A stretch of 64,000 bases of DNA from Escherichia coli (GCF_011045215.1 NZ_CP049201.1); one strand, 5' to 3'; counted from the first letter of the stretch, positions 13,183-39,098 are shown. The notes: generated from the letters alone by a model not told the origin. Translations and numbers: made by a program.

Positions 13183-13267
13183 GCCGAAGTGGCGAAATCG
13201 GTAGACGCAGTTGATTCAAAATCAACCGTAGAAATACGTGCCGGTTCGAGTCCGGCCTTCGGCACCA
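13183..13267 (+). tRNA. leuX: tRNA-Leu (anticodon CAA)
   Basis: 85-nt sequence GCCGAAGTGGCGAAATCGGTAGACGC...TTCGAGTCCGGCCTTCGGCACCA with CAA anticodon loop, long variable arm and encoded CCA end. Confidence 0.93.
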
Positions 13268-15934: not shown

Positions 15935-16946
15935 TTATGTAAATGTGCGAAATTCGGGAAGAATCATTGTAACGAATGTTCAACTTCCCGAAGGCCCAAT
16001 AGAATTCAAAAGATTCGATCCAAAAAAGGGTGAGACACTGCATAGTTCTAAATCGGAAAGCATCTCCACACAAATGTTGTGGAGATTGGCTAATGCTTTA
16101 CAGGAAGATGTCCCTGTCAATTTGGATCGTATTTTTGGTGCAAGCTATAATACACGTGCTGTTCTCGAAAGCCTTTTGGCCCATACTCCTGAGTTTTATT
16201 GGTGTAAGCTTGATCGCCTTGAGGTAATGAACACTCAGAAAAATATTAAAAAAGGTCACAAGCACCTTATTTATAGACCAAATGACCCACATGAAAATGG
16301 TGTAGCAATAGAACATACTACTAATGTTATAATTTCTGAAATGAATTTAGATGTTGTCCATCAATCAGTTGATATAGAGACAATCTTACCTACTAAAGGA
16401 ATGACGATTGAGGAAAAAAGACGTCATGCACAAATTCAAATCTCATTAGTAAAAATAGGTCATTACTTAGGTTATCGGACATGGGTTGCAGCAAATGATC
16501 GTGGCCTCCAATATAATGGAAAATCTATAGCCCAAATGGATGGGGTCATAGATAATTTAAGAAATGAACAAGTGCTTCAATCATATGATAAAGCTATCAA
16601 AGAAGCTCGGCTTATAGATTGTATTTGGTTTCGAAATGGAAAATTAATGCCTGCAGTTATGGAGATTGAGCATAGCACTGGTATTAAAAGTGGTTTGGTA
16701 AGGATGAAACAATTTTATGATTATGCACCACAGTTAAAAAATATACGTTGGACCGTTGTGGCACCTGACGAATATAGAAATAAAGTTATAGAGTTTTCTA
16801 ATATGCCACAATTTAAAGAATTAGATACTCGATTCTTCCCCTATTCTGCTGTAGAGGAACTCTATTCATTATGTGCAAGAAGGAATCCTCAAGGAATTAC
16901 AGACGATTTCCTTGATGCATTCATGGAAAAGTGTGTGACACATTAA
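15870..16946 (+). CDS. Hypothetical protein, candidate restriction endonuclease partner of the methyltransferase
   Basis: 358-aa ORF overlapping the methyltransferase 3' end by 65 nt on the same strand; assignment by context only, no motif recognised. Confidence 0.45.
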   Translation: MRVTAANLAQAIANLPRNTQFNYVNVRNSGRIIVTNVQLPEGPIEFKRFDPKKGETLHSSKSESISTQMLWRLANALQEDVPVNLDRIFGASYNTRAVLESLLAHTPEFYWCKLDRLEVMNTQKNIKKGHKHLIYRPNDPHENGVAIEHTTNVIISEMNLDVVHQSVDIETILPTKGMTIEEKRRHAQIQISLVKIGHYLGYRTWVAANDRGLQYNGKSIAQMDGVIDNLRNEQVLQSYDKAIKEARLIDCIWFRNGKLMPAVMEIEHSTGIKSGLVRMKQFYDYAPQLKNIRWTVVAPDEYRNKVIEFSNMPQFKELDTRFFPYSAVEELYSLCARRNPQGITDDFLDAFMEKCVTH

Positions 16947-18893: not shown

Positions 18894-20156
18894 TTGAAAT
18901 ATAAAATAAAAAGATTGAAGAATAAAGATGGTATCAGAAGTTGCATTATTATTAATGAGAGCAACGGATTACCCTTGGTTTATTCTAACTTATATATGAG
19001 TGTTATTTCACGAACAAATAGCTATTCATTTTCAACAATGGAAGCAATAGCAAATGCTTTGCTTTTATTTGAAAGATATAATGCTTACATGAATGTGGAT
19101 GTTTTTGATATGGTAAATCCTGACATCGAAAAACTTGTCTCGAACAAAGGATATTTATTCGGGTTAATGAATGCCCTTTCTTACAGAAACGACTTAGAGA
19201 ATGTTACAAGCATTCTTAAAGAACAACATGTCTCTAAAAGAACCCTTTATTTCAAGATAATGACAATTGAAAATTACGTCAAATGGTTTTTTGATAACAT
19301 TGCTATCAATAATATTGATTCTTCTCGTTATGAAGCAATCAGTCGAGCATTTGATTTTATAAAGCCAAGAATAGAGAACGGAAAGAATTACAATATTGAA
19401 AGCGAAAGCAAATCATTGACAAATGAGCAAGTTACAACTTTGACTGATATGGTAAGTGTTAAATCTAAGATTAATCCATTTTCGGAGCATGTAAGGTTTC
19501 GAAATAATCTAATAATTAAAATTTTATTAGAGACAGGTATTAGGGGAGGGGAACTACTTAATATTAAGTTGGTTGATTTTGACTATGTCCACAAAAGTCT
19601 ATGCATAGTAAGAAGGCCAGATGATCAAAACGAACCACGATTAAGGCAACCATTGGTTAAAACTTTAGAAAGAAAAATACCATTGAGTATAGAATTGACT
19701 GAGTTAATACAGAATTATATTAGTGATTTCAGAGGTAAGCAGTGTCATGCAGGGGAGCATGACTATCTGCTTGTTACTCATAGCAGTAAAGGTCAATTAG
19801 GTCATGCATTAACTATTTCAGGTTATCAGAAAATTTTCGAACAAATTAGGAAAAATAGTAATGTTTTGAGCGATATTGTGGGGCATTCGCTAAGACATAC
19901 TTGGAATGTGAAATTCTCAGAAATGATGCTCATGAATTCGAACTCTCAGGAATATATTACTTATGAGAAAGTAAGAAATTATCTTATGGGGTGGAAAAAG
20001 AATAGTACAACCTCAGATATCTATAACCAAGCATTTATAGCACAAGAAAGCCGAAAAATAATGGCTGTTATTAATCCACTCAAAAACATAGTAGAGGACA
20101 AATCCAATGTTTCAAACTCTAAGAAAGCTACAAGAAAGTCAATATTCGGTTTTTGA
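18894..20156 (+). CDS. Tyrosine recombinase-like protein A (first of three tandem genes)
   Basis: 420 aa, probable TTG start; catalytic-domain elements TGIRGGE (Arg box), HSLRHT and a C-terminal Tyr (TSDIY). Confidence 0.75.
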   Translation: MKYKIKRLKNKDGIRSCIIINESNGLPLVYSNLYMSVISRTNSYSFSTMEAIANALLLFERYNAYMNVDVFDMVNPDIEKLVSNKGYLFGLMNALSYRNDLENVTSILKEQHVSKRTLYFKIMTIENYVKWFFDNIAINNIDSSRYEAISRAFDFIKPRIENGKNYNIESESKSLTNEQVTTLTDMVSVKSKINPFSEHVRFRNNLIIKILLETGIRGGELLNIKLVDFDYVHKSLCIVRRPDDQNEPRLRQPLVKTLERKIPLSIELTELIQNYISDFRGKQCHAGEHDYLLVTHSSKGQLGHALTISGYQKIFEQIRKNSNVLSDIVGHSLRHTWNVKFSEMMLMNSNSQEYITYEKVRNYLMGWKKNSTTSDIYNQAFIAQESRKIMAVINPLKNIVEDKSNVSNSKKATRKSIFGF

Positions 20157-21432
20157 AACCAAGGATGGTAATTTCAAAGTGAACTTTTCTTATTCCAAGT
20201 GGAAGATAAGTGAAAGTATAACATTGAACATTGATTCTTTAAGAGTGGTCATCAGTGCATATATACCTATCAAAACCACTTTGGCATATTTCGCTATAAA
20301 TTATAGTGCCAGTTATACTAAGAAAATGTTTTATGCAGTAAAGCATTACATTAAGGCCTGTAATACGAATGATAGCTTGTTTTCTAAAGATTGCATAAAG
20401 TATTACTATAAAGTTGTGAGCTCATTAGATTACACACATGCAGAGACAGTCAAATATTTTTTTATGAAGATGAGTGGTCTTTACCCATCTTTGTTTTCGG
20501 CAGAAGCAATCATATTTTTAGAAAATATTAAAGTTAAAAAAACAAATGCAAACAAGTCTATAAAGACACATGATTATAAAAAAGGTCCCTTTAGTGACTC
20601 GCAATTAAAGGTAATTATAGATTCTGTAGCGATAGCTTATAAGGAAGAAAAGGTAAGTCTGTCAAACTATCTGCTAACCTTCCTTGTTGCATATTCCGGG
20701 CGGCGACCTATGCAAATATCTCAACTTGAAGCTGGTGATCTCTTTGCTTTTAATGGAGAGTACTTTCTCAATATCCCAAGAATTAAACAACGAAATGGAT
20801 ATAGAAAAGAGTTTAGAAAATTACAAATTCCAGAAGAGCTTTTTAGCCAATTGACATATCTCGTTGAAGCTGTGAATTCGCTGGTCAGTGACACATTAAA
20901 AATCGATTTAAGTGAAAAACAAAAGAGAAAACTACCAATTTTTATAAACACATATCCATTCAAAAAAGGATGTGTTGAGCTAAACATGATTGAAAGTGGT
21001 GGATTAAAACTTAACCCCTATGCCATAACACTAAAAATAAGGAACACTATAAATCGTTCAATAAATGAATATCAAGCCTATCTGGGGTGTATAAATTCGC
21101 GCAGATTTAGATATTCATTAGGCACTAAGGTTGCACAATTGGGTTATAGTCCTTCACTGATAGCAAATGTTTTGGACCATTCTTCAATCAATTCTGTTAT
21201 GAGTTATATAGAAAATACAGCGGAAAATGGCAAGAGAATTAATGAAGCTGTAAATGAACTAATGAAGCCACTGGCTAACAAATTTATTGAGGGAAAAGAG
21301 CTTCAGAAAGAGTTAGATTCTTTGAAGCATTTGATAGAAGAATACTGCGGTGGATATAAAACTAACTCTTTTGATAATACAGCAATATCGTTAGTAACTA
21401 ATTCTATCGACGATATGATCAATAGCATTTAA
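20107..21432 (+). CDS. Tyrosine recombinase-like protein B (second of three)
   Basis: 441 aa; AYSGRRPMQISQLE Arg box, box II RRFRYSLGT with Arg in place of the usual first His, and a C-terminal Tyr (VMSYI); GAGGA ribosome-binding site; overlaps gene A by 50 nt. Confidence 0.7.
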   Translation: MFQTLRKLQESQYSVFETKDGNFKVNFSYSKWKISESITLNIDSLRVVISAYIPIKTTLAYFAINYSASYTKKMFYAVKHYIKACNTNDSLFSKDCIKYYYKVVSSLDYTHAETVKYFFMKMSGLYPSLFSAEAIIFLENIKVKKTNANKSIKTHDYKKGPFSDSQLKVIIDSVAIAYKEEKVSLSNYLLTFLVAYSGRRPMQISQLEAGDLFAFNGEYFLNIPRIKQRNGYRKEFRKLQIPEELFSQLTYLVEAVNSLVSDTLKIDLSEKQKRKLPIFINTYPFKKGCVELNMIESGGLKLNPYAITLKIRNTINRSINEYQAYLGCINSRRFRYSLGTKVAQLGYSPSLIANVLDHSSINSVMSYIENTAENGKRINEAVNELMKPLANKFIEGKELQKELDSLKHLIEEYCGGYKTNSFDNTAISLVTNSIDDMINSI

Positions 21433-21444
21433 AAGAAGGATAAA

Positions 21445-23052
21445 GTGATGAAAGAAATCCATGATAAAATGATTAATAACTTCATTATCGCTAATAAGGC
21501 CCATGCGAAAAATTTTGGAAATTTTGAGTGGGATAATTCAAGTTGGGGAGGCGGAATTACATTTTTTAGCGGAATCAAGGTTAGAATGGGGAACAAGAAT
21601 AAGAAATTAATGAATTATAACATTGCAGAGTTCGCAAAAGCATATGTATGGCATGAGTGCTTTCATGATTTATCTGTAGCTTTCAGAGTGCTGAGATTAT
21701 TTAGGATATTAGAAATTGCCATAGGTAAAACAAATAAAGAAGTTAAGATTTCAAGTATAGATCATAAAGTATTAGATGAAGTTATGACTATTGTTCAAGA
21801 AAATTTTGCAATATCCACTTCTTATAAAATATATTTAGATCTTAGGGTATTATGTTCTTTTATGTCTAAGAACGAAATGTTGCCAGAATCCATTACACGA
21901 TGGTCATATCCATTTAAGGCATATGATGCTTACACAAATAGCACAATGGATTCGATGGGAAATTTATCCAATCAGAAAAAACTTCCTGATGAAAAGGCTA
22001 TAGATTTTATTGGTAAAATATTTAGCTCTAATCCAGTTAATGAAAGGGATATATTTACATCTTCTATTTTTGCATTGCTCTTATGTGCTCCATCTCGAAT
22101 TAGTGAAATTATGCTTTTAGAAGAGGACTGTGAAGTTATAGTTGAAGATAGTAATGGCATATCAAGATATGGTTTGCGATTTCTTTCTCTGAAGGGCTTT
22201 GGATACAATACCAAATGGATTCCAGACTGTATGGTTTCTGTAGCTTCAAAGGCTATCATGCGATTGAAAAAACTTACAAGGAATGCAAGGGTTGTTTCTC
22301 GGTTAATAAAAGCAGGGGAAATTAATTTATACGAGTCATTAAACAAAAGTGCGTTTGATTGTTTAACAATTGAAGATCTCCACAAACTTGGCTTTGTTAT
22401 AAATCAATTAAATATCTCCCAAGAAAATCTAAAATTCTTGGCTAAGATAAAACATGGTACAGTCAGTGTAAAAGCATTTTGGATTTATATAGAGCGAAAG
22501 AATGTTAATTCTGAAAATATTAATGCTAATTTATGCTCCATAAATCATAATTTATTGGACTCTATCAAGGGTGCTGATATTTTTACAACAATTAAGGCAT
22601 CTTCAAAGTATTTTAGAGCGGATTTTCGCACCGATAATATGAATAACATATTTCATAGGAATATACATTTTAACTGTGATGGTTCTGTTTTAATTTTCCG
22701 CAGCCATCAAATTAGACATTTACTTAATACTATAGCTCAACGAAGCGTATTGTCAGAGATACAAATTGCCCAATGGTCTGGGAGAAGGAGTGTTAAGCAG
22801 AATTCAGTATATGATCATATGTCTCACAACGAGTTATCAGAACTATCAAGGAAACTATTGAACGGAAACACCTACGAAGAAACAAAAATTTCAGCATCTT
22901 CATTTAATGAACAATCGATTATTATGAATTTGATTAAAGATAAATTTGAAAAACTAGAATTAAAAATCCAAAATTCAGATCCAAGAAAAAGAAAATATAT
23001 TCTGGAAAAAATTAAAGATTTAAGATTGGAAATTGAATACATATTAATGTGA
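21445..23052 (+). CDS. Tyrosine recombinase-like protein C (third of three)
   Basis: 535 aa, GTG start; CAPSRISEI Arg box, HQIRHLL box II and a C-terminal Tyr (NSVYDH). Confidence 0.7.
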   Translation: MMKEIHDKMINNFIIANKAHAKNFGNFEWDNSSWGGGITFFSGIKVRMGNKNKKLMNYNIAEFAKAYVWHECFHDLSVAFRVLRLFRILEIAIGKTNKEVKISSIDHKVLDEVMTIVQENFAISTSYKIYLDLRVLCSFMSKNEMLPESITRWSYPFKAYDAYTNSTMDSMGNLSNQKKLPDEKAIDFIGKIFSSNPVNERDIFTSSIFALLLCAPSRISEIMLLEEDCEVIVEDSNGISRYGLRFLSLKGFGYNTKWIPDCMVSVASKAIMRLKKLTRNARVVSRLIKAGEINLYESLNKSAFDCLTIEDLHKLGFVINQLNISQENLKFLAKIKHGTVSVKAFWIYIERKNVNSENINANLCSINHNLLDSIKGADIFTTIKASSKYFRADFRTDNMNNIFHRNIHFNCDGSVLIFRSHQIRHLLNTIAQRSVLSEIQIAQWSGRRSVKQNSVYDHMSHNELSELSRKLLNGNTYEETKISASSFNEQSIIMNLIKDKFEKLELKIQNSDPRKRKYILEKIKDLRLEIEYILM

Positions 23053-23984: not shown

Positions 23985-24010
23985 AGCTCCCGAAAGGGAG
24001 CTTCATTTTA
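23985..24010. terminator. Putative bidirectional terminator
   Basis: Stem agctccc/gggagct with a gaaa loop, flanked by A/T runs, between convergent genes. Confidence 0.6.
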
Positions 24011-24023
24011 CTAATTTTCTTTA

Positions 24024-24287
24024 TTAATAACTTCCTACTTGCCAGCCATCATCTGATTTTATTAATTTAACTGTTCCAGCTTGCTTTGTTCCGCTCATAT
24101 CCATAATTATATTGCACTTATAGCTTTTATCAGATTCTTTTGTGCAATCTACTTTTTTTACTGAAGTCAGATAGCTTCCAGTCCATTTTCGCATAGCTTT
24201 AAAAATATCATCTTGGGAAGGCTCACTACTACATGCAGTAAGAAGAAATACGGAAATAATAACAGCAAGGACCGAAGATATTTTCAT
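24024..24287 (-). CDS. Putative lipoprotein
   Basis: 87 aa; signal peptide with lipobox LLTAC. Confidence 0.6.
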   Translation of the reverse strand: MKISSVLAVIISVFLLTACSSEPSQDDIFKAMRKWTGSYLTSVKKVDCTKESDKSYKCNIIMDMSGTKQAGTVKLIKSDDGWQVGSY

Positions 24288-24311
24288 TAGACTTAATCCT
24301 GATTAAGTATG

Positions 24312-24698
24312 TTACTGAAAAATGCCAGATTTTGTATTATTATTATCAGTAGAGAATGTCCATTTGCTGACAATTTCGCCTTTAAAATCTATTTCAAGAG
24401 TTTTGGACTGAGTCTGTGAACCACCAGTTAGTAGCCCAACTACAGGAATGAAAGTCGAGGCATTGAACTGATTGTTATACATAAAATATCTCCATTGCTC
24501 GTTGCCATCATCAAGAGTCGTTCTTGTATCTGGTTCACCTAACTTAGCGAGTAGCTCGTTCTTAGTAGTCTTGTTTTTAATGATCTTTGACTGAAGACTT
24601 TGTGCAGTTTCATTTTCAATTTGTTGGTTCCCGGATGTTGAGCAGCCAGAAATTAAAAATATTGCAATGAAAAAGGCGGTAACAATAGATTTATTCAT
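24312..24698 (-). CDS. Putative lipoprotein
   Basis: 128 aa; signal peptide with lipobox LISGC. Confidence 0.6.
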   Translation of the reverse strand: MNKSIVTAFFIAIFLISGCSTSGNQQIENETAQSLQSKIIKNKTTKNELLAKLGEPDTRTTLDDGNEQWRYFMYNNQFNASTFIPVVGLLTGGSQTQSKTLEIDFKGEIVSKWTFSTDNNNTKSGIFQ

Positions 24699-24727
24699 TC
24701 TATCTTCCTTATTATATTTGGTCAGGG

Positions 24728-25006
24728 TTAACTTTTATGTGTGAAAACGGCTCTGTGGGCAAATTTCTTGCGTAAATAAAATCTTAAAGAAATTGCTGAG
24801 GCAAAATAGATAACGACAGTTAATATAAAACTTTGACTGATAGCGAATATGAAGAAAGCAATTACTAACAGCACAATTCCTATGAGTAAAGCTAACCAGG
24901 CCGAAGGTTCACCATAATTTATTGTTGCGTGACAGCCGATACAGACACGAACTCCGAACGGACTCTCTTTGAAGCAGAACGGGCACTTAATGGTCTCTTT
25001 ACTCAT
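24728..25006 (-). CDS. Zinc-ribbon membrane protein
   Basis: 92 aa; N-terminal CPFC...CIGC four-cysteine motif followed by two hydrophobic helices. Confidence 0.55.
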   Translation of the reverse strand: MSKETIKCPFCFKESPFGVRVCIGCHATINYGEPSAWLALLIGIVLLVIAFFIFAISQSFILTVVIYFASAISLRFYLRKKFAHRAVFTHKS

Positions 25007-25259
25007 ACAAACTCCGTTTATTCAACAGGTTCCTGATACTACAAATTGTTTAAAAATCATCAGGTTCTTTTCAGGGATTCTCGATGAATAATTATCTTTA
25101 GTAAAATCACTTGTACCGATCGATGTTTGAATCATGATAGGTAAAAACTATCATAACTAGATTATCGATCTGTATTAACGATCAATAATTTCTTGACATA
25201 ATATAAATTAGTTACTGTATAGTTAAGAGTGTTTGAGAATAATCAATACAAGTAATTGT

Positions 25260-26405
25260 CTATAAACGAATTTTTATCGCCTTGTTTAAAGGTTTCATTG
25301 CGTAGATATTTGAGAAGGTCGTGTGTGTTTTGTGAAGAATGGTCTTACCAAAGCTTCTCAGAAGCTCGATGTAATGCTTTATGGAAGCAAGCCACTCTAC
25401 GAATCTGAGATGCTTTTGCCGTTGTACTGCATTTTTTTGAAGAATCTTTCCTACGATTTCGTTTCGTTTGTCTTCTCTAAGCCGTAATTCCAGTTCTGCA
25501 ATTTTTTCAACGATACTTTCCTTTCTCTCAGTGGTTTTCAACACTGTTGCAGGAGCAGGAGCAGCAGGTTGGTCTTTTGTCGATATGTCGCTTCGTAGAG
25601 CTTCTAAGTGGTCGGGGTTGTAGTTAAGCCGATTACTGAGATTTGCCCAGGAGTAGCTCTTGCCCAATTGTGAAGCTTTGAAAGCTATGCCTGTGTATTC
25701 GAAAGAGAAGCCGTTCATTTTACCGGTAGAGGCAATATTGGCCTTCCAAGATACTTCAGCTTCTTCCAGCCTCTTGATAAAAGTTAGAAGGTCCGGCTTA
25801 TCAGATAAACTTTTATCAAGTATCTGCTGCAGAGCTTCTCTTGGTGAAAGCACCCCGGTTCGTTCCGATAGCATTTTCTCATTACGGGACACTCTCTTCC
25901 GCTTCGGTTGTGCTTGCGAGGGGGGAGATGCAGTTTTGGTCACTGTCAGGCCATGAGCGATTTCGAGTTTACTGATGATCTGTGTGCTGATGAGGTTTTC
26001 GTTCCTACCCAAGTAGAGCTTCCCACCATTGAGATCTATGCGACTTGCGATAATGTGTATGTGCTGGCCATCGTCGTCATGAAGCACATAGCAACGAAGG
26101 TGAGTATCCCTGAACCCCATCCTCTTCATGTAGTCATCTGCGATAATGGACCACTGTTCATTCGTTAGTGTTTCACCGTCGGGTAAGCGAAGTGAGTTGT
26201 GCCAAACGGGTTTTGCGACATCTAGGCGAAGATGCTTGGTGCTATCGAATTCAGCGATCATTTCAACGGCTGAATCACTTAACATGTTCCCGCCAATGAC
26301 GACTGGATCGCTTTTGTGGTGTGCTCCCGATTGTAATACATAACGAACAACACCAGCGAAGCTCTTACCCCTCTTGATCTTCCGCATACCCTTCACGAGG
26401 GACAC
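25260..26405 (-). CDS. Relaxase (MobA/VirD2-type mobilisation nuclease)
   Basis: 381 aa; three-histidine motif HDDDGQHIHII typical of the relaxase/mobilisation nuclease domain; overlaps the upstream mobC-like gene. Confidence 0.75.
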   Translation of the reverse strand: MSLVKGMRKIKRGKSFAGVVRYVLQSGAHHKSDPVVIGGNMLSDSAVEMIAEFDSTKHLRLDVAKPVWHNSLRLPDGETLTNEQWSIIADDYMKRMGFRDTHLRCYVLHDDDGQHIHIIASRIDLNGGKLYLGRNENLISTQIISKLEIAHGLTVTKTASPPSQAQPKRKRVSRNEKMLSERTGVLSPREALQQILDKSLSDKPDLLTFIKRLEEAEVSWKANIASTGKMNGFSFEYTGIAFKASQLGKSYSWANLSNRLNYNPDHLEALRSDISTKDQPAAPAPATVLKTTERKESIVEKIAELELRLREDKRNEIVGKILQKNAVQRQKHLRFVEWLASIKHYIELLRSFGKTILHKTHTTFSNIYAMKPLNKAIKIRL

Positions 26406-26739
26406 TCCAAAAATCTGTTCTTAACAAGTTGTGACGAAGCTCTTCAAGTTGTCGCTTCACAGCGAAAAGCTCTGTATGAGTAAGCTGGCTATCTTTACTC
26501 TTACTGTCGATATGGAGAGCAATACGATTCAACTTTTGTGATATGTCAGACAATTTTTTCCAGGCTTCAGTATTAATTGTCGGTACTACTGGTGGCAGGT
26601 TTTGCAGAAATGACATGCGGAGCCATTCACCTTTACTTTTATTACCTCGTTTTATATTTAAAATCTGTAATTCATTGTTGTTGAGTCGAACACTTATACA
26701 ATGTATTCTAATTCTGTCATCTAATCTTAATTTAGCCAT
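26365..26739 (-). CDS. MobC-like relaxosome accessory protein
   Basis: 124 aa; KLNRIALHI resembles the MobC N-L-N-Q-I-A-R motif; 41-nt overlap with the relaxase gene. Confidence 0.65.
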   Translation of the reverse strand: MAKLRLDDRIRIHCISVRLNNNELQILNIKRGNKSKGEWLRMSFLQNLPPVVPTINTEAWKKLSDISQKLNRIALHIDSKSKDSQLTHTELFAVKRQLEELRHNLLRTDFWSVPREGYAEDQEG

Positions 26740-26885
26740 ATAAGTTCCTTTTATATGATTTAATATGATTAATGATAGTTATTATTTCCCATTAGTCAAT
26801 AGCAGAACGGTTTTGATATATGGGTTTAATGTGCTAAAAATAAATCTCTCTGAAATAAAGTATTCAAAGATTCCCTAAATTAAAA

Positions 26886-28049
26886 TTAAGGATGATCTAT
26901 TGAAACAAACTTTTGACTAAACTCCAGCCATCTTGCATTATCAACATCCTTCACAAAAGCAATCAGACCTGCGACATGATTGTAAAAGCCAATTGGAGAG
27001 TCAAATTTTTCATGTCTTGCAACTTCTGAGAGACCAAATTTTTTTATTGAGTAAAGGTGGCGTTCAATACGTTTATAAGTTTGTTTAGATAATCGAGGGA
27101 CATTGCCATCAACAAGTAATCCTAAAACTATTTTTTTTGAACCAGGTCCAGCTACTCTTATTTTGCTTACGTTTTCTTTGAAATGGTGCTTACGAATGAT
27201 GCTGATAATGTTATTTTGTATTTTTCCAACCGAAACACCGTCGGGTAGAGTACCACCGCAGGATAATGTTATATCATCAGCATATCGAGTATAAGTGAAG
27301 CCATATTTATTAGCATATTCAGATAGAGAAATATCTAACTTTACAGTGGCTAAATTACTAAGCATTGGGCTACTCGGTGCCCCTTGAGGTAGCACTCCTA
27401 ACGGCCATGGTTCTGATATGTCCCAAAAAAGGCTCTTCTCTTTATTTTGTCCGTAAAGCTTATATTCCTTAGTTGAGTGCTTAGGAACAGAAATTAGAGA
27501 TTGTAAATGTTGTGGTAAACGTATAGTTGTGCATAGCCTTGATAGTTCAAATGCTATTAATGGCCGATATCCAGCATTTTTAAAAACCATATAAACATCA
27601 GATTCATTTATTGAATAAAAGAAATCGGAAATGTCGAATTGGAAGAGCCATTTAGCACCACAATGCTGTTCTGCACATTTTCTGATGCCACCATTAGGAT
27701 GGAAAGCAAAAGAAGTATTATGGGGAACTAACTTTTTTAATATTTCACTATTGATGAAATGCTGTACTTTAAATATCTCGCCAGTTACAGCATGAATATG
27801 GCGTCTTCCACCTGAACGTTTTTTTATAGCAAACATGCGATAATTTGCTGATTCACGGCGGCGTGATACAGTGGATCGTAGCAAGCGATAATCAACACCA
27901 GTAATTTTTGAAAGATGGCGTAATGTAAAAATTACAGGGAGATTATTTTTCTTCAGATTACTTGCATAATTTCTTAAGTTTAGAGCCTGTGTCTTCCCTA
28001 AGGATGACTCTGCATTTTGATAAAGTTGGTGTGCTGACCAGATTTCCAT
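26886..28049 (-). CDS. Reverse transcriptase, retron-type or defence-associated
   Basis: 387 aa; motifs FDISDFFYSI, LPQGAPSSP, catalytic YADD, and a thumb-like KIRVAGPGSKKIVLGLLV; no maturase, endonuclease or other extra domain. Confidence 0.85.
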   Translation of the reverse strand: MEIWSAHQLYQNAESSLGKTQALNLRNYASNLKKNNLPVIFTLRHLSKITGVDYRLLRSTVSRRRESANYRMFAIKKRSGGRRHIHAVTGEIFKVQHFINSEILKKLVPHNTSFAFHPNGGIRKCAEQHCGAKWLFQFDISDFFYSINESDVYMVFKNAGYRPLIAFELSRLCTTIRLPQHLQSLISVPKHSTKEYKLYGQNKEKSLFWDISEPWPLGVLPQGAPSSPMLSNLATVKLDISLSEYANKYGFTYTRYADDITLSCGGTLPDGVSVGKIQNNIISIIRKHHFKENVSKIRVAGPGSKKIVLGLLVDGNVPRLSKQTYKRIERHLYSIKKFGLSEVARHEKFDSPIGFYNHVAGLIAFVKDVDNARWLEFSQKFVSIDHP

Positions 28050-28237
28050 TCACCTATCCTTTGAGCCCAGGGGGCCATCAGTGTCATACATTTTCCGAGT
28101 CCTCGATGGCCGTTAATGTATGACATTGAAGGGCGGCGTAGCCGCCTTTGCGTCAGATCTTTCCAGAGATGTTTCTCCAACATCCCCATCCGTTGTAACA
28201 AAAGCCACAACAGATTCTGTCAAACAAGCGGTGAACT
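28050..28237 (-). ncRNA. Candidate structured non-coding RNA upstream of the reverse transcriptase (possible retron msr-msd)
   Basis: 188-bp intergenic region with an 11-bp perfect stem (28082-28092 with 28115-28125), an interleaved 7-bp stem (28073-28079 with 28105-28111) and a GGCGGC-gta-GCCGCC hairpin (28132-28146). Confidence 0.35.
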
Positions 28238-29458
28238 TCACTCATCATTGTTTAACGGCTGAACGGAGTGCTGATCAGCACACCAAGACTCTGGAATGTA
28301 AAGACCAAAATCCCATACACTATCGTTTTTAACATGCCTAGAATTTACAAGTATGTCAAGTCCGAATTTAGATAATCGTTTTTGAGTTGTCAATAGTCCT
28401 AATGTCTCTGCATATATGAGTAGTTTTTCTACATACGAACAATCAACATTCAAACGTAAGGCAATGCTTTTGTTATCTCTGACACCTCTTTTTATAAGTT
28501 TTAGTAAATTTATAATTTCGGGAGATAAAGATGAATGGGGGGAAGTGTTATGCTTTGTTCCATTTTCTAACAAGGCAAGCAGCCATCCTGGAATTGCTCT
28601 ATCAGGCATTAGTCCTTGCCATTTTTTATTAGAAAACCATAGTATTCCAGGAAGGTTATTAGGGACGCTATGATAAAAAATTATATTAGATAAAACATTA
28701 CCATAGCCAAGACGAGCCCATGGAGGAATTTTGGTTTGATTTTTACAAAGATTGATTATTTCATTATACTGCTCACCCCACCGAGTTTCTAACCAATTTT
28801 CATTATATACGATGTTACTTATGAAATTGATTTTTTCAGATTTTCTATATTTTCTTACTCCATGGTCTGAGCCGCGAATAGTATTGATTATTCTATTTTC
28901 AGAACCTAGTGTTCTGGCGAAAGAAATTAAAGTTAATCTTACTAGTCCTAAACTCCACCAACTTAAAAAGGTAGGGTTATCGAGCATGGCATTAATAAAT
29001 CCGGATACTCTATCACCACTACCAATCGAATCATCAATAAGTAAAAAATCGTTGACTTTAGATTTTTTCAGATCATTGAGTGATGGATGATCTAAAAACA
29101 TAGTTTTATTAGACCGCACAAGGTTTGAAATAATTGAATATACTAAGTCTTCGCTACCTTGCGAATGACCTGGTCTATTAACAACATCACCATTAAGGTC
29201 CCATAATACTTGTTTGTCTGGATCTAATTTGCGAACTGAATAAAGGGCATAATTTTTATTTTTTGGTAAATCAGAAATGCTCTTTTGAAGCCATATGGTA
29301 AACTCATCTCTACTTACAAAAGTTAACTTGCTCAAGATGTTTTTTGCAATCGCTTTTTGGCTGCTATTAAATTGCATAAGCCATTGAGCTATTTCCTGAG
29401 AGGATTCAATTTTTTCTACTGAAAGTATTTTAAATTTAGGTTTGTCTCTTGTTTTCAT
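28238..29458 (-). CDS. Phosphoribosyltransferase-like protein with a C-terminal helix-turn-helix region (candidate effector)
   Basis: 406 aa; PRPP-binding-type motif FLLIDDSIGSGDRVSG in the N-terminal half; HTH-like KSIALRLNVDCSYVEKLLIYAETLGLL near the C-terminus. Confidence 0.65.
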   Translation of the reverse strand: MKTRDKPKFKILSVEKIESSQEIAQWLMQFNSSQKAIAKNILSKLTFVSRDEFTIWLQKSISDLPKNKNYALYSVRKLDPDKQVLWDLNGDVVNRPGHSQGSEDLVYSIISNLVRSNKTMFLDHPSLNDLKKSKVNDFLLIDDSIGSGDRVSGFINAMLDNPTFLSWWSLGLVRLTLISFARTLGSENRIINTIRGSDHGVRKYRKSEKINFISNIVYNENWLETRWGEQYNEIINLCKNQTKIPPWARLGYGNVLSNIIFYHSVPNNLPGILWFSNKKWQGLMPDRAIPGWLLALLENGTKHNTSPHSSLSPEIINLLKLIKRGVRDNKSIALRLNVDCSYVEKLLIYAETLGLLTTQKRLSKFGLDILVNSRHVKNDSVWDFGLYIPESWCADQHSVQPLNNDE

Positions 29459-29693
29459 TTTTTTTAACCACTGTCAGGGCAATTGTTATTTCATAACATA
29501 AAAAGTAATGATGGTAAAGGTTTTGTTGTATCATTAACCTTCTTTATAACTGAGTAGACTAAGTTTAGTACTCTTATACGAAGCTAAATGAGCTAAATAT
29601 TAAATACTAAAATGTAATGGCGGATATTTTTCAACCGAAGGGCGAAAAACAAGGGAACGCAAAGAAGCGGAGCTTCGATGAGTTAGCCCTTGC

Positions 29694-30278
29694 TTATTCA
29701 TATGATTTGTATTTCTTTTCATCTACTAAATTTATTATGGACGATGAGGTTTTATATATCAACTTTACATTGTGTAAAGATATATTGTGTTTGCTAATAA
29801 AATATAAAAGATCCAATAGCATCTGTTCTTGCCGTTCTTGTGGAAACTCTAATTTTACGATTGGAGTAAATTCAACAATAAAACCACTATTCAACAGTAG
29901 TTTTATGTAGCTAAATGAGTTTGGCGTAACTGTTTTGATTTTTATTATTTTATTAGTAATTAGATGCTTATGGTTTATAATAATGTGAGGGTTGAGCAGT
30001 GCCATATCATATGACATGAATGTTAAACCATGACTATCTATTATGTTCAAGTCGATACCAAGTTGTATAAACATATCGATTATTGCTTTGCTATGTATCC
30101 AGTTATAAAATAAAGGTGTCCTTCCATAGTTATCTAAATGATTTAGGTCGGCTCCTGCAGCTAAAAGAGATGTTGTAAGTAAATAGTCATTAGAATAAAA
30201 TAATGGTGTACGACCACAATTATCCTTTAAGTTTATTAAACCATTGTCTATGAATATATTAGATAAATTATTGTGCAT
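29694..30278 (-). CDS. Ankyrin-repeat protein
   Basis: Two GRTPLFY...L..GADLN ankyrin units; start placed at the Met preceded by a perfect AAAGGAGGT ribosome-binding site. Confidence 0.65.
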   Translation of the reverse strand: MHNNLSNIFIDNGLINLKDNCGRTPLFYSNDYLLTTSLLAAGADLNHLDNYGRTPLFYNWIHSKAIIDMFIQLGIDLNIIDSHGLTFMSYDMALLNPHIIINHKHLITNKIIKIKTVTPNSFSYIKLLLNSGFIVEFTPIVKLEFPQERQEQMLLDLLYFISKHNISLHNVKLIYKTSSSIINLVDEKKYKSYE

Positions 30279-30339
30279 TTTACCTCCTTTTATCATTATG
30301 TATATTAAAAAAAGGAGGTTGTCAATATTTAGAGGTTAG

Positions 30340-30588
30340 TTAACCACCAAATGTTTTTTTCTTAGGTTGTGGGGGCTCTGCATTAAGTATGATAGTTTTA
30401 ATATTTGCATTTATTTGATTGATATTATCAGTCAATATATTAATAACTGATAATGCTTCTACAGGTGTGCTAAATGATGATTCTAAAAACACGCCTGAGC
30501 CTTTCAAAAATATATGGTAAGTGAGTATGCCATTTTCTTCATTTTCATATATATCATAAAGTTCATTTACTGTTTCGTACAATTTCAT
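30340..30588 (-). CDS. Hypothetical protein
   Basis: 82-aa ORF in the same minus-strand gene string. Confidence 0.4.
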   Translation of the reverse strand: MKLYETVNELYDIYENEENGILTYHIFLKGSGVFLESSFSTPVEALSVINILTDNINQINANIKTIILNAEPPQPKKKTFGG

Positions 30589-30643
30589 TATTATACTCCT
30601 TGATAATGATGGTTTATTTCAATGGGCTCGCGATATCACTACC

Positions 30644-31519
30644 TTATAAATGATCTCCAATGTGAGCAATAGCGATTTGTGCCGGTCTATCAGGAATTCT
30701 ATTAAAGAAGCCAAAGTATATTCTATTGTAGTAATAAGTTCCTTTTCGATTAGTATTGTCCATGTATTCAAGTTTATAATGGAATTCACAATTCACGTCT
30801 TTATAGATACAATCACCCACTTTAAAATCACGTTTTAATTCCCCTATGGCTCGTTTATTTTTGCCTCCACCTTCTGGTGTTACAAGATAAGGTAACGATG
30901 AATTCATAATTCTAATGTTATGTTGTGAGTCATTAGGTATAATTGTATAGTTATTAACAAAATAAAGAAATTCAGTGATGCTTTTCAAAAAATTTTCATA
31001 TCCACCTTCAATTTTCCTAATAAAATTAAAGGTTTGTGGTGGGTTATCCAAAAAAATGACATTCTTGAAAATGTTTTTAATATTGTCAGCATATTCATCA
31101 CAATCCGATGGGAATTCATCAAGGATTTTCTTAGAAAGATCAATTATTTCACTTTCACTAGAAACTGTATTATCCTTTTTTAAAGGTATGTCTGGAGATT
31201 GATAGGCACAGAGTTTTCTTTCGGCAAGTATCGATGGGGATGTATTGATGATATTTAGAAGTTCATTGCAGCCTATTTCATCCAATAAACTAATTTGGCC
31301 TATTTTATAATACTCATTAACAAGGCCACCGTAATCAGGGTTTGTTGAAAATAATTTAGTGACAAATTTTCCATCAAATTCATTGGAGCGAAGAAACTTT
31401 ATAAAATCTGAATCCACTCTCTCTACAAGTGCTTTAAGATCTTTAATCTGGTTAAAAATCTTAATTTGTTCTTCTTCAAGAGAAAAACTATCTATGAACA
31501 AGCAAACACCTGCTTTCAT
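30644..31519 (-). CDS. Hypothetical protein (third gene of the DUF262-ATPase operon)
   Basis: 291-aa ORF starting 9 nt after the ATPase stop; no confident motif. Confidence 0.55.
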   Translation of the reverse strand: MKAGVCLFIDSFSLEEEQIKIFNQIKDLKALVERVDSDFIKFLRSNEFDGKFVTKLFSTNPDYGGLVNEYYKIGQISLLDEIGCNELLNIINTSPSILAERKLCAYQSPDIPLKKDNTVSSESEIIDLSKKILDEFPSDCDEYADNIKNIFKNVIFLDNPPQTFNFIRKIEGGYENFLKSITEFLYFVNNYTIIPNDSQHNIRIMNSSLPYLVTPEGGGKNKRAIGELKRDFKVGDCIYKDVNCEFHYKLEYMDNTNRKGTYYYNRIYFGFFNRIPDRPAQIAIAHIGDHL

Positions 31520-31528
31520 GAAATCCCC

Positions 31529-32680
31529 TTAATTTTCAATATCAGGAGTATTAAATGATCCTGTCATAATGGTATACATATCAATTGATTGCTGGTCAAA
31601 GAATCCTTTCGGCCAACTAGAAAGTTTTCCATCTTTGCCAATAGATATCTTTTCTGCAGTAGATTCATTATTCTCATGTGAAATATAAAATAACGAAATT
31701 AGCTCAGGTGAAAAGTCAGGAGATGTTCTTGCTACGACACGGATTCCGTTGAGAAGGTGATCGCTATGAGTTTCTATGAATACCTGTACTCCCGCTTGAG
31801 CAGTGTAAGCTATTAATCTACCCATATAGCTTTGTCCTCTAGGGTGCAAATGGGCTTCCGGGTTTTCTAAAACTACTAATTCGCCCGGTTTTGCTAAAAG
31901 TAATGCTGAAACAATACTCAAAGCATAGCTATAACCAAAACCAATGTTTTTGGGTTTAGTTTGTTTTCCTGACTCAGCCTGTATTGTGTTATAAGCAATG
32001 TTTGCACTAACTTCCAATTTTGGCTGTATTTTATAATTTGGGGATATTTCATCCATCCATGCCTGTATATTATTCGCAACCCTTACATTATTATAATTAT
32101 GATGTATTCTTGGGTCGTCTTTATTTGGATTACCATCTTTCAGTATTAGTCTATCTTGCCTATTCATTATATTGTCTAATACTTCGATGACATATTCACC
32201 TTTTTTCCCCAACCAATCGCTATGAAAATTGTGTTGTGATAAAGAAATATTGTCTCTTGGACCAATACGTTCGGCTTCAATATATTGAAAATTACTTGCA
32301 TGTATAAAGTTTTTAATTGTTTTAATGCTATCCATACCTGAAATACATGGAAGTTCATTACGAAGATTTGCTGAGTCCTCTTGTGTAACCCCCCAACTGA
32401 CTTCACATTCTTTAACTGAAAGAGTGATTTTCAGTTGATCATCATCTGAAATAAAGTCATTAATAATATCGTCAATACGACCAATGTTTATCAGTTCACC
32501 ATTTAACTTTATATCATTTTTACTACTAAAATCAGACTGTAACACCATACCTATGGCTTGCATTACTGTACTCTTACCGACAGAGTTATTACCACAAAAT
32601 ACATTTAGACCTGACAAATCAAAAGATTGCTCTTTGTATGATTTAAAATTTTTGAGTTTTATCGATTTAATAGGGAGCAT
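31529..32680 (-). CDS. ABC-type (AAA_21-like) ATPase
   Basis: Walker A GNNSVGKST near the N-terminus; LENPEAHLHP Walker B/D-loop region and ETHSDHLL H-loop near the C-terminus; ATG sits 3 nt after the upstream gene's stop, with a GAGGG ribosome-binding site. Confidence 0.75.
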   Translation of the reverse strand: MLPIKSIKLKNFKSYKEQSFDLSGLNVFCGNNSVGKSTVMQAIGMVLQSDFSSKNDIKLNGELINIGRIDDIINDFISDDDQLKITLSVKECEVSWGVTQEDSANLRNELPCISGMDSIKTIKNFIHASNFQYIEAERIGPRDNISLSQHNFHSDWLGKKGEYVIEVLDNIMNRQDRLILKDGNPNKDDPRIHHNYNNVRVANNIQAWMDEISPNYKIQPKLEVSANIAYNTIQAESGKQTKPKNIGFGYSYALSIVSALLLAKPGELVVLENPEAHLHPRGQSYMGRLIAYTAQAGVQVFIETHSDHLLNGIRVVARTSPDFSPELISLFYISHENNESTAEKISIGKDGKLSSWPKGFFDQQSIDMYTIMTGSFNTPDIEN

Positions 32681-32682
32681 TA

Positions 32683-34599
32683 TCAATTACCCTCATTAGC
32701 ATTAACAATCTTAATGCCTGTGCTTTGTTCAAGAATTTTCGCAAAAGAATTGAATCTATATAATATAGTTATTTTCTTTCCTGTTGAGGTAGAGATAGAG
32801 TCCTTAAACCCTCGCTCTGCTTCAATGTAAGTCTGTGAATCCCATGTGGCATATTCTTTTGAATTGCTATCAATAGCAGAATAAAGGGTATCAACCAATT
32901 TATCAGAATTTTTCAGCAATAACTCTTCTTGTTCCTCAGTAACATAATAGAAATAGTAAATTATCACTTCATAAAGTTGCTTACTTATAGGTGATGTATT
33001 AGAGCCAATCTCTTTTATGAAAGCTAAATCACCGAAAACATCATAGGCGAGGTTTAAAGCCCTCAAATATTTTCTTTCTATTTGAAGATACTCGTTGCAT
33101 TCATTCGAAATGTACGCACTTCCTAAATCTATTTCTTTTTCGTTTAATAAGTTTAATTTATATAGATTTAAGTTTTCCATGGCTTTTGATAAAAACTTAT
33201 CATAGGAATTAAAATTATAATTTTTAAAGCCAATATTTATAAATGCAAGAGCAGCAAGGCAAAGCTCCATATCCTTTTGTCTATCAGGCTTAACCTTACC
33301 ATGCGTTGCTTGTTTGAATTCGTTTTTGGATGCCAGATACCGTAAAAACTTAACACTTGAACCTTGATTCAGGGCCGAACGAATTTCTTGATCACTTAAC
33401 TTAACACCATATGTATTGATACGGTGGAATAATTCAACTATGAGATCAGTGCTATCTTTATTCATTTCTATAAAGTAAGCCGTGATTTCATATTCTCTTA
33501 TGGCTCTTTGTTCAGTGCGAGTAAGCTCACCAAACTCTTTACCATTTAAATCCTCAAGGATATCAAGTTTAGAAAGTTTAAATTCTCCACTCATAAAATC
33601 ATAAATTGTTGTGATCCGTTGTAAACCATCAACAACGACCCACTTATCTTCTGCGATTCGATTACCAAAATAAAATACAGGAAGTGGGAGTTTTAAGAGA
33701 ATAGACTCGATTAATTTAGACTTCTTCTCATTATTCCAAATACGATCTTTTCTTTGGAAGTCAGGTTGTAGTTCAATATCACCAAAATGAACCCGATCAA
33801 AAATGAGAGATAAAACCGGAGTCTTGGAGGTAATTCTTGCAACACCAAGTTTAGCTTGTAGAGTTTTTAATTCCAAGTTCAACTGTGATGATGTTGTATC
33901 ATTTTCACCCTCATCTACTCCATAAGTATTGGGTGACTCTATAAGTTCTTCTACAGTAGTATTATTACTAATTTTTAATGTTGGCACCTCTATATTATAA
34001 TCAAGAGTCACAACTGAGTTAGCCATATCTGCGGAAAGCTCTTTAAATCTATTAAGAGTAACCTCAACCATTTTTGAAGCAATTTCAGATGGGAATTTCT
34101 TCAAAACTATTTGATAAGCATCATCAAGGCTTTGAACTAATTCAACCTGCTGTTCATAAATTTTCCCAAGATTCAAATTGAGAAAATTATCAATTTTTTT
34201 TCTTAAAACCCTAAATTCAGAGCCTTGAACTTCTGATAATGTCGCTGCTTCATGGACATTATGACTACGCAATAACAGGTGTTTTTTGTTTTCATACTTG
34301 AAATGTTGAATATAGGGTAAGTTAGCAAATATTGTTTCTGGTTGGTTCCTGCTCGAAGAACTACCGTAAAGAACCTGCTCTACATTACAAAAACCTCTAA
34401 TATTTAAATTGCTGTAAATCGATTCAAGCTCTGATAATGAACGTGTTTTAGATTCAGAATTAGAAGAGACTTTATATTTACCGTTTTCACGATCAATGCT
34501 TATAATACATAGTGGAGGCGTAGAAGGATTAATTGGCTGTAGCTGTTTGCCAAAAAGAAGATTTTCGATGTCGTTTAGCACTTGTTCAAAGTTAAGCAT
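32683..34599 (-). CDS. DUF262 (ParB-like nuclease fold) domain protein
   Basis: 638 aa; central QPDFQRKDRIWNNEK...VVDGLQRITTI matches the DUF262 IPxFQR and DGQQR signatures. Confidence 0.7.
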   Translation of the reverse strand: MLNFEQVLNDIENLLFGKQLQPINPSTPPLCIISIDRENGKYKVSSNSESKTRSLSELESIYSNLNIRGFCNVEQVLYGSSSSRNQPETIFANLPYIQHFKYENKKHLLLRSHNVHEAATLSEVQGSEFRVLRKKIDNFLNLNLGKIYEQQVELVQSLDDAYQIVLKKFPSEIASKMVEVTLNRFKELSADMANSVVTLDYNIEVPTLKISNNTTVEELIESPNTYGVDEGENDTTSSQLNLELKTLQAKLGVARITSKTPVLSLIFDRVHFGDIELQPDFQRKDRIWNNEKKSKLIESILLKLPLPVFYFGNRIAEDKWVVVDGLQRITTIYDFMSGEFKLSKLDILEDLNGKEFGELTRTEQRAIREYEITAYFIEMNKDSTDLIVELFHRINTYGVKLSDQEIRSALNQGSSVKFLRYLASKNEFKQATHGKVKPDRQKDMELCLAALAFINIGFKNYNFNSYDKFLSKAMENLNLYKLNLLNEKEIDLGSAYISNECNEYLQIERKYLRALNLAYDVFGDLAFIKEIGSNTSPISKQLYEVIIYYFYYVTEEQEELLLKNSDKLVDTLYSAIDSNSKEYATWDSQTYIEAERGFKDSISTSTGKKITILYRFNSFAKILEQSTGIKIVNANEGN

Positions 34600-38168: not shown

Positions 38169-39098
38169 TCACCCCCTAAAAACCTCATTCCGATGCCACT
38201 CCACAAACCCCTCATAAGGGTAATTTTTACGCACCTGCGGCAACGCAATAGTTTTCCCGTCAAAATCCCAGAATAATCTCTCAACGATCCCTCCGCCGTT
38301 TACCGCATCTGATACCAGTACCCGCATATTTTCGTCCAGGCCAATCGATCCTTTATCAAAGGCTTTATGGTGAATTGCGCAAAGCGCCAGGCCATTAGGA
38401 ATTTCACAAGGACCGCCGTGCTGTTTCCATTTTATATGCGCCGCTTCCAGCGCGACGGTGGTGTCGTCGTGGCGCATATTAAAGCCACATATCGCGCACT
38501 GGTAGTTATAAGCGCGTAATACATTTTTGCGAAATAACGGGTCGCGCTGTTTACGGATTTGCTGGAGATCAAAACCCAGCTCGTCAGCAATTTCTTCCTG
38601 AATACTCTCGGTGAAGTGCGCTTCGAGTATCTGTTGCGCCAGAGTATTGATGAGTTTTTTATTGCCTGTTACCAGGGCGTAGTGCTGTTCATCGAAACCG
38701 CCTGCAACGTGGTATTCGTTCAGTTCCTTCACTGGCGGTTGTCGGCTGCTACCTGCTGTTGAGCAAAGCTCGGCATTGTGTAATTGCCAGAATCCGTCGC
38801 CTTGTAATCGCCAGAACGGCATATCAGGTCGGTACTGTGAACGCTGTGGCCCAAAACGTTCCAGTAAATTGTGCAGAGGTTCGTAGATTTCCGATCCATA
38901 ATCGAAAAGGCGCGGATGCCCATTCAGGTATCCCGCTAATACGTATAGCAGTAACAATGGTTTATGCGGCGCGCGCTGTTCACCCTTGTGCCAGATTTTT
39001 ATATTGGCAATTGCCTGCTGTAGCGATTTACTGGAAGCCATTGATATCCCTGGCAGTGAAATAATTGCGATCATGCTCGCAAATTTTCTGCTGTTCAA
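38169..39098 (-). CDS. HNH endonuclease-domain protein
   Basis: 309 aa; C-terminal YQCAICGF...AAHIKW...ALCAIHH HNH motif; N-terminal domain of about 200 aa unassigned. Confidence 0.7.
   Translation of the reverse strand: MNSRKFASMIAIISLPGISMASSKSLQQAIANIKIWHKGEQRAPHKPLLLLYVLAGYLNGHPRLFDYGSEIYEPLHNLLERFGPQRSQYRPDMPFWRLQGDGFWQLHNAELCSTAGSSRQPPVKELNEYHVAGGFDEQHYALVTGNKKLINTLAQQILEAHFTESIQEEIADELGFDLQQIRKQRDPLFRKNVLRAYNYQCAICGFNMRHDDTTVALEAAHIKWKQHGGPCEIPNGLALCAIHHKAFDKGSIGLDENMRVLVSDAVNGGGIVERLFWDFDGKTIALPQVRKNYPYEGFVEWHRNEVFRG

Follow-up and report, generated by a model that had tools for sequence, protein, structure and literature searches.

What is the reverse transcriptase (RT) gene that lies beside a gene for a phosphoribosyltransferase (PRTase)-like protein in the leuX island of Escherichia coli (GCF_011045215.1, NZ_CP049201.1), and does the pair constitute a new defence module? 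We analysed a 64,000-nucleotide (nt) window of this genome, whose positions are used throughout. An original prediction, made from the sequence alone, had described the pair as an uncharacterised RT-based anti-phage module. Our analysis indicates that the locus is very probably a complete tripartite retron of type III-A3, for which a mode of action like that of the retron Eco11 can be inferred. Such a retron is an antiviral system of bacteria, built from an RT, a folded RNA that the RT copies into DNA and a toxin resembling PRTases. We hold its identity and architecture as a III-A3 retron with high confidence, and an Eco11-like trigger and chemistry, argued by analogy, with moderate confidence. 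The predicted retron with a PRTase-type effector was thus borne out; the word ‘uncharacterised’ was not, since the locus is already node 1373 of a published census and belongs to a published type.

The genes lie on the minus strand in the order effector–non-coding RNA (ncRNA)–RT, with 188 nt between the two open reading frames (ORFs). Full-length profile matches at the locus have E-values of 1e-93 to 1e-160, far above chance level. The three components, with the catalytic motif of the RT, are as follows:

28238–29458, minus strand: effector gene, encoding a 406-residue protein in which a winged helix at the C terminus is joined to a PRTase-like domain (effector of a type III-A retron)
28026–28286, minus strand: retron ncRNA gene (msr–msd), 261 nt, which shares sequence with both neighbours, the effector gene at its 3′ end and the RT gene at its 5′ end
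26886–28049, minus strand: retron RT gene, 387 residues, identified by PADLOC, Pfam RVT_1 and relatives of solved structure
27273–27284, minus strand: YADD catalytic motif of the RT

The reverse transcriptase belongs to the retron lineage

The RT was expected to be a 387-residue enzyme with the motifs FDISDFFYSI, LPQGAPSSP and YADD and with no maturase or endonuclease domain. Each motif was found in the translation of 26886–28049, and Pfam assigned RVT_1 and nothing else. The best PADLOC match, over the full length of the protein, was RT_III-A (PDLC02944, 5.6e-160), and the best 25 PADLOC matches listed for it were all retron RT models. The top NCBIfam match was a retron St85-family RT. A profile search of the Protein Data Bank (PDB) returned Ec86 first (1e-46), followed by Kva2, Ec67 and Ec78, all of which are retron RTs. 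The window RT belongs to the retron lineage; clustering with the RTs of group II introns or diversity-generating retroelements (DGRs), named in the original prediction as grounds for abandoning it, was not what the closest solved relatives indicated.

The effector combines a PRTase fold with a winged helix

The upstream protein had been read as 406 residues long, with a loop of the type that binds phosphoribosyl pyrophosphate (PRPP; FLLIDDSIGSGDRVSG) and a helix-turn-helix-like segment at its C terminus. The ORF at 28238–29458 encodes this protein, and its translation contains the loop motif. Pfam identified PRTase-CE (PF24390, 1e-22) and, in agreement with the C-terminal segment, wHTH-PRTase_assc (PF24409, 5e-12). 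The suggested profile searches therefore returned RVT_1 for the RT and PRTase-CE for its partner, and both proteins match PADLOC retron III-A sub-models. A PDB sequence search with the effector found no relative. The AlphaFold model (predicted local distance difference test score, 85) resembles PRTases for uracil and orotate, together with a winged helix of the MarR type, so that the lack of a PRTase fold, against which the original prediction had also guarded, is not seen in the model. As modelled, the effector joins a winged helix to a PRTase fold of type I, in which the PRPP loop is intact; this single-protein arrangement, PRTase-like at the N terminus and winged helix at the C terminus, is that of type III-A3 (cluster 67_3). 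As for stand-alone PRTase-like defence proteins, DS32_1_antiphage scored 19.3 bits against a cut-off of 250, and the PADLOC list contained no ShosT match. Three elements of the effector were located:

29015–29035, minus strand: PRPP-binding loop DDSIGSG, residues 142–148 (protein alignment A3); the Eco11 counterpart is VVILTDTIGSGNQ (PMC12746101)
28649–28708, minus strand: retron-PRTase signature G-x14-PNNxP, residues 251–270, GYGNVLSNIIFYHSVPNNLP (motif defined in PMC12746101)
28274–28300, minus strand: C-terminal peptide YIPESWCAD, residues 387–395, a variant of Eco11 YYPxxLRxx (alignment A3), whose last codons double as ncRNA arm a1

Across 27 homologues, Eco11 included, D143, G146, S147 and G148 of the PRPP loop are invariant, as are G251, H263, P266, N268 and P270 of the signature, which in the window has the form G251-x14-PNNLP (PNNLP, residues 266–270). 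The C-terminal peptide is less constant. In the window effector it is followed by 11 further residues, and only the Y-x-P core of YYPxxLRxx is kept. The window sub-clade as a whole carries LY[IV]PxSWC and Eco11-like loci carry YYPxSLRxP, with two loci (L013 and L019) intermediate. Given that the census places node 1373 in type III-A3, the literal YYPxxLRxx motif would mark an Eco11-like subgroup and not the type.

A covarying msr–msd RNA bridges the two genes

The 188-nt gap between the ORFs folds much more stably than shuffled controls (z = −6.3). A first model, in which the ncRNA was confined to this gap and the minimum-free-energy (MFE) pairing GUUCACC/GGUGAAU was taken as the a1/a2 stem, was discarded, as homologues place the real arms inside both coding regions. 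An Rfam scan of 24000–32000 at E ≤ 10 found no retron msr family, only chance microRNA and small nucleolar RNA matches; the ncRNA family is absent from Rfam. Relatives were gathered by a genome scan (at least five close relatives), look-ups of the exact proteins and a search of metagenomes with a conserved 18-base motif. Chance accounted for about half of the metagenomic motif matches, and these were removed by requiring two anchors. The collection comprises 40 distinct ncRNA sequences, 39 of which form the alignment (A2).

RNAalifold on this alignment gave a consensus of 70 base pairs (bp), 45 of them with compensatory changes on both sides. Paired cells amount to 95.9% under the consensus, compared with 36–44% when partners are slid by 1–3 columns, and the covariation score is 0.428 compared with 0.06–0.09; the observed values were reached in none of 500 shuffles. 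The 261-nt RNA on its own folds at −118 kcal/mol (MFE) and gives back the family consensus, which comprises the following elements:

28260–28285, minus strand: arm a1; outer arm of 15–17 bp, 3-nt internal loop, inner arm of 6–8 bp
28259, minus strand: candidate branching G (2′-OH primer) directly after a1, the invariant alignment column G28
28168–28258, minus strand: msr, not reverse-transcribed, with three RNA hairpins
28219–28256, minus strand: msr hairpin (stem–loop) SL1, which holds the effector stop codon
28189–28214, minus strand: msr hairpin SL2
28165–28187, minus strand: msr hairpin SL3
28054–28167, minus strand: msd, the template of the multicopy single-stranded DNA (msDNA), about 114 nt, including a conserved single-stranded stretch
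28132–28146, minus strand: small msd hairpin
28076–28131, minus strand: long msd hairpin
28066–28074, minus strand: short msd hairpin
28027–28052, minus strand: arm a2, which includes TGA-ATG (the RT start codon) and RT codons 1–8

Arm a1 lies within effector codons 392–400 and a2 spans RT codons 1–8, so that in the closing stem the last effector codons (SWCADQ) pair with the first RT codons (MEIWSAHQ). Position by position, a1 and a2 are paired in 90–100% of the 40 sequences, with compensatory exchanges (C-G to U-A and G-C to A-U, in either direction) at positions 9, 10, 16 and 26. The 20 a1/a2 pairs of the consensus are 97–99% paired, with compensatory changes in 7, and helices 3–5 show such changes in 18 of 26 pairs. 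The candidate branching G has the context TTCA-G-CCG in the window and TT(C/T)A-G-CCG, invariantly, across the 39 sequences. From its position and context, which match those of rG28 in Eco11 (PMC12746101), we infer that G28259 is the branching G.

The distribution of G·U wobbles delimits the msd. In the closing stem and the msr hairpins, 12–26% of the pairs are of this kind, as against 0.4–0.7% in the two main msd stems (helices 6–7, 28076–28146), a near-absence to be expected where a stem has to form in the DNA copy as well. Census node 1374, whose ncRNA is 89% identical, has a sequenced RT-DNA of 114 nt that maps exactly to 28054–28167; this mapping fixes the msd and confirms its delimitation from the G·U statistic. 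The statistic had singled out the msd before the published RT-DNA sequence did so, and it might serve to find msd boundaries in other families of retrons. The msDNA of the window copy is therefore expected, from its relative, to be about 114 nt long, beginning 5′-CTATCCTTTGAGCCC... and templated from 28167 to 28054.

The retron is already catalogued

The window ncRNA is identical at 256 of 258 positions to that of ‘Retron Terminal 1373’ from Klebsiella pneumoniae ISC21, which is assigned to clade 9, type III-A3, in the census of Khan et al. 2024 (PMC10849725; Mestre 2020 dataset). To judge from this near-identity, the retron is already catalogued as node 1373, within a published type, and is not new. 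The census used node 1373 solely as an editing donor in human cells, where it gave 0.52% precise editing, 4.5 times the Eco1 value (PMC10849725). Node 1374, a III-A3 retron from Providencia heimbachae, produced RT-DNA in E. coli at 1.09 times the Eco1 level (PMC10849725). The exact window RT and effector proteins are multispecies Enterobacteriaceae entries at NCBI, found in Salmonella, Klebsiella, Enterobacter and E. coli under generic names, and a literature search for their accession numbers returned no papers. Retron-Sen3 and Retron-Kpn1, both named in the Eco11 paper as enterobacterial III-A3 retrons, were considered and ruled out as this retron; their ncRNAs are Eco11-like.

Because PADLOC or DefenseFinder would label the locus automatically and it already has a catalogue number, the remaining value of the present analysis is modest and lies in the mapping of the ncRNA, branching G and msd of the window copy to the base. 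The sub-clade is nevertheless abundant, with hundreds of homologues at 55–70% RT identity, and distinct from Eco11, and clade 9/III-A3 retrons such as node 1373 are of practical interest as genome-editing donors.

An open frame through the ncRNA in relatives

The effector frame is free of stop codons across the whole ncRNA in 27 of the 39 distinct sequences (L003, L004, L085–L088 and 21 metagenomic loci; L085 is from Halomonas and L088 from Pseudomonas oryzihabitans). It ends at a TGA abutting the ATG of the RT (TGAATG, inside the a1/a2 stem), and the annotated effectors are about 465 residues long. For the other two frames, just 5 and 1 of the 39 sequences lack stops, and after collapse to 23 clusters at 90% nt identity the open-frame counts are 15, 4 and 1. 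Stops are distributed bimodally, with either none or mostly 2–8 per sequence, and there is only one conserved stop-triplet column. A real protein domain in this extension was considered and not supported: codon periodicity was absent (entropy 0.66/0.59/0.68), the synonymous fraction was no higher than in another frame and the bias towards indels of a multiple of three was not significant (8 of 15). In the window copy (stop inside SL1), its closest relative L084 and Eco11, the effector stops just after the C-terminal peptide.

In most of the sub-clade, then, it looks as if stop codons are avoided without constraint on the peptide. This sequence pattern fits translational coupling, and lineage effects could also have produced it. 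A tentative idea, to which we give a rather low probability, is that translation has to run through the ncRNA gene, which would couple RT to effector translation or time the folding of the ncRNA. If so, the window and L084 lineages and Eco11 would be variants that lost or never had the coupling and that rely on the conserved Shine–Dalgarno sequence alone.

A proposed mechanism and its alternatives

The mechanism proposed for the window retron begins with reverse transcription and ends with abortive infection. The RT would prime at the conserved G after a1 and copy about 114 nt (28167 to 28054) into msDNA, a step supported by the experiments on node 1374. The subsequent steps are modelled on Eco11. 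RT, msDNA and the PRTase effector would form one complex, in which the effector is held silent. Catalysis by a phage superfamily 2 (SF2) helicase of the T4 UvsW or T5 D10 type, as opposed to mere binding, would then turn the PRTase on without releasing it. PRPP would drop, nucleotide metabolism would be disturbed and the infected cell would abort the infection. For Eco11 itself, defence, triggers and PRPP depletion have been demonstrated, and UvsW also activated five other, unnamed III-A3 retrons (PMC12746101).

Several observations weigh against carrying this scheme over to the window. The searchable literature holds no phage-defence phenotype or trigger for the window sub-clade, and the census enters the RT-DNA production of node 1373 as ‘undetermined’ (PMC10849725). 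Identity to Eco11 is low, at 37% for the RT and 24% for the PRTase. The window effector has YIPESWCAD plus 11 residues where Eco11 ends in YYPTTLRRP, a tail that was targeted in the Eco11 mutational work. Depletion of PRPP by Eco11 amounts to only about 50% (P = 0.04), which leaves some doubt about how the reference system itself kills. The low identity and the replaced peptide mean that trigger specificity, and even the substrate of the effector, could differ. A retron of the same architecture might thus have a trigger different from UvsW/D10-type helicases, or a PRTase-like domain whose substrate is not PRPP. The clade-specific peptide and the sub-clade’s own, highly conserved msr sequence speak for such a divergence, as does the report of the Eco11 authors that the response of III-A3 retrons to UvsW occurs ‘to varying degrees’ and that these retrons may be adjusted to the phages that infect their hosts. 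However, neither the PRPP-loop nor the PNNxP residues vary in either lineage, domain architecture and ncRNA layout are shared, and all five of the other III-A3 retrons were activated by UvsW; we therefore consider a different trigger or chemistry possible but unlikely.

It is far less probable that the locus is an inactive relic, carried passively on the island, making no msDNA and giving no defence. The ‘undetermined’ entry for node 1373 would accommodate a relic, and so would the closed effector frame of the window copy, which sets it apart from most of the clade; retron decay does occur, as shown by the Eco11-like copies in complete E. coli genomes that are disrupted by IS3. Yet both window ORFs are full length with every invariant residue present, every ncRNA helix is intact and identical proteins have been retained in four genera. 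Furthermore, the templated editing by node 1373 in human cells requires a working RT and ncRNA. Least plausible of all, and in our view already refuted by profile scores, PDB ranking and ncRNA covariation, is a chance association of a nucleotide-salvage PRTase with a non-retron RT, be it a defensive one (defence-associated RT (DRT)/UG or abortive-infection (Abi) RT) or that of a group II intron or DGR. The RT does have weak NCBIfam matches of this kind: Drt2 (39.5 bits, cut-off 390), Drt3a (24.9 bits, cut-off 200) and a group II RT-maturase (34.6 bits, cut-off 300). Against these scores of 25–40 bits stand the retron RTs that fill the top PADLOC and PDB ranks, the RVT_1-only Pfam assignment, a covarying msr–msd with a1/a2 arms and a conserved branching G, and a PRTase from the retron-specific PRTase-CE family. 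The preferred reading is therefore still a III-A3 retron, with Eco11-like working as the probable mechanism.

The retron is cargo of a mobilisable leuX island

The expected setting, an AT-rich leuX island with mobilisation genes adjoining the pair, was recovered. The tRNA-Leu(CAA) gene is at 13183–13267, and from about 13 to 38 kb the GC content is 30–40%. The RT gene adjoins a MOBP-type relaxase gene (25260–26405), which has a small gene upstream of it. The flank of the island (yjgR–ahr–leuX) is 97.7% identical to E. coli. From leuX, the order is integrase, type II restriction–modification (RM) pair, three tyrosine recombinases, relaxase operon, retron, ankyrin-repeat gene and NsnCBA, followed by a phosphorothioate-DNA restriction enzyme:

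14795–16946: type II RM pair beside the leuX integrase, a Dcm-type cytosine methyltransferase (PADLOC MTase_II, 1e-163) and an overlapping restriction enzyme (REase_II, 2e-124)
18894–23052: three consecutive tyrosine recombinase-like genes (420, 441 and 535 residues), also conserved where L001 and L184 carry related islands
29627–29696, strand unassigned: 70-bp conserved non-coding element at the outer edge of the retron cargo, with an inverted repeat and, at 29664–29676, a terminator-like hairpin
29694–30296: 200-residue ankyrin-repeat protein, between the retron and NsnCBA
30644–34599, minus strand: complete NsnCBA candidate defence system just beyond the retron (PADLOC 6e-94, 1e-110 and 2e-115)
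38169–39098, minus strand: phosphorothioated-DNA-binding restriction endonuclease, in a higher-GC block past the AT-rich island (NCBIfam NF045808, 438 bits, cut-off 180)

The retron is cargo of this leuX-integrated mobilisable island, alongside other defence systems. The 70-bp element, possibly an origin of transfer (oriT) of the island or a terminator, occurs at 83–99% identity in ten other complete E. coli genomes that lack the retron. The related island of strain CFSAN061761 (L184) has it 118 bp upstream of the mobC-like/relaxase operon, and no retron intervenes; by comparison, the window retron appears to be cargo of roughly 2.9 kb that entered between the mob operon and the element. Among 5,426 complete E. 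coli genomes, only two carry the retron, at about 98% identity, and one of the two has it at leuX. The similarity of both to the window stops at about 29696, and other cargo occupies the position of NsnCBA (caspase-family, TIR and adenylate/guanylate cyclase genes in L001). A plasmid search gave no matches. A mobilisable leuX island common to Enterobacteriaceae genera would explain the multispecies distribution of the retron. One further sub-clade member (L091, IMGVR_UViG_3300027863_001680, 67 kb) is on a contig classed as viral in IMG/VR, and from this the sub-clade may also travel on prophages.

Comparison with named retrons

The closest named relative is node 1373, from which the window ncRNA differs by one substitution in the SL1 loop and one extra T in the published text, which may be a transcription artefact. 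Host and island differ, the window copy being in an Escherichia leuX island, and for practical purposes the two appear, by sequence, to be the same retron. Node 1374, compared by ncRNA alone, belongs to the same sub-clade, with 229 of 258 positions identical (about 11% divergence).

The PRTase-linked loci among the matches listed in the genome scan fall into two groups, that of the window being tight and the Eco11-like one broad. Among these matches, RTs of the window group are 52–70% identical to the window RT and 34–37% identical to that of Eco11, and members of the Eco11-like group are themselves only 33–42% identical to Eco11. Identities of 35–40% are accordingly normal inside type III-A3, and low identity alone is no argument for a new type. 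Only two Eco11-like copies were found among the 5,426 complete E. coli genomes, in PSS-15 (L002) and tcmA_3 (L083), near tnaA/tnaB. In both, the same IS3 insertion splits the PRTase gene and leaves ncRNA and RT intact, so that the effector looks like an inactivated toxin.

Eco11 itself (E. coli EC2608, III-A3; PMC12746101) has the same best PADLOC sub-models as the window for both proteins and, for the RT, the same ranking of the remaining models. The two retrons share gene order, an ncRNA that overlaps both genes, a two-arm a1/a2 stem, a branching G around nt 28, three msr hairpins and long and short msd hairpins, as well as the PRPP loop, G-x14-PNNxP, a fused winged helix and a disordered C-terminal tail. 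The Eco11 authors mutated this tail and propose that it is accessible for binding or modification (PMC12746101). Unlike Eco11, the window retron has YADD in place of YSDD, an msd of 114 nt by homology compared with a reported msdDNA of 101 nt, and an extra small hairpin (28132–28146) within the msd. Eco1 (Ec86, II-A3), the source of the closest RT of solved structure (1e-46), belongs to the same RT clade 9, and its effector is also a two-lobed enzyme-plus-winged-helix protein with a functional C-terminal tail (PMC12746101). The Eco1 effector is, however, nucleoside-deoxyribosyltransferase-like and its ncRNA belongs to a different family; in contrast to Eco11, its trigger is Dcm-type modification of the msDNA (as cited in PMC12746101).

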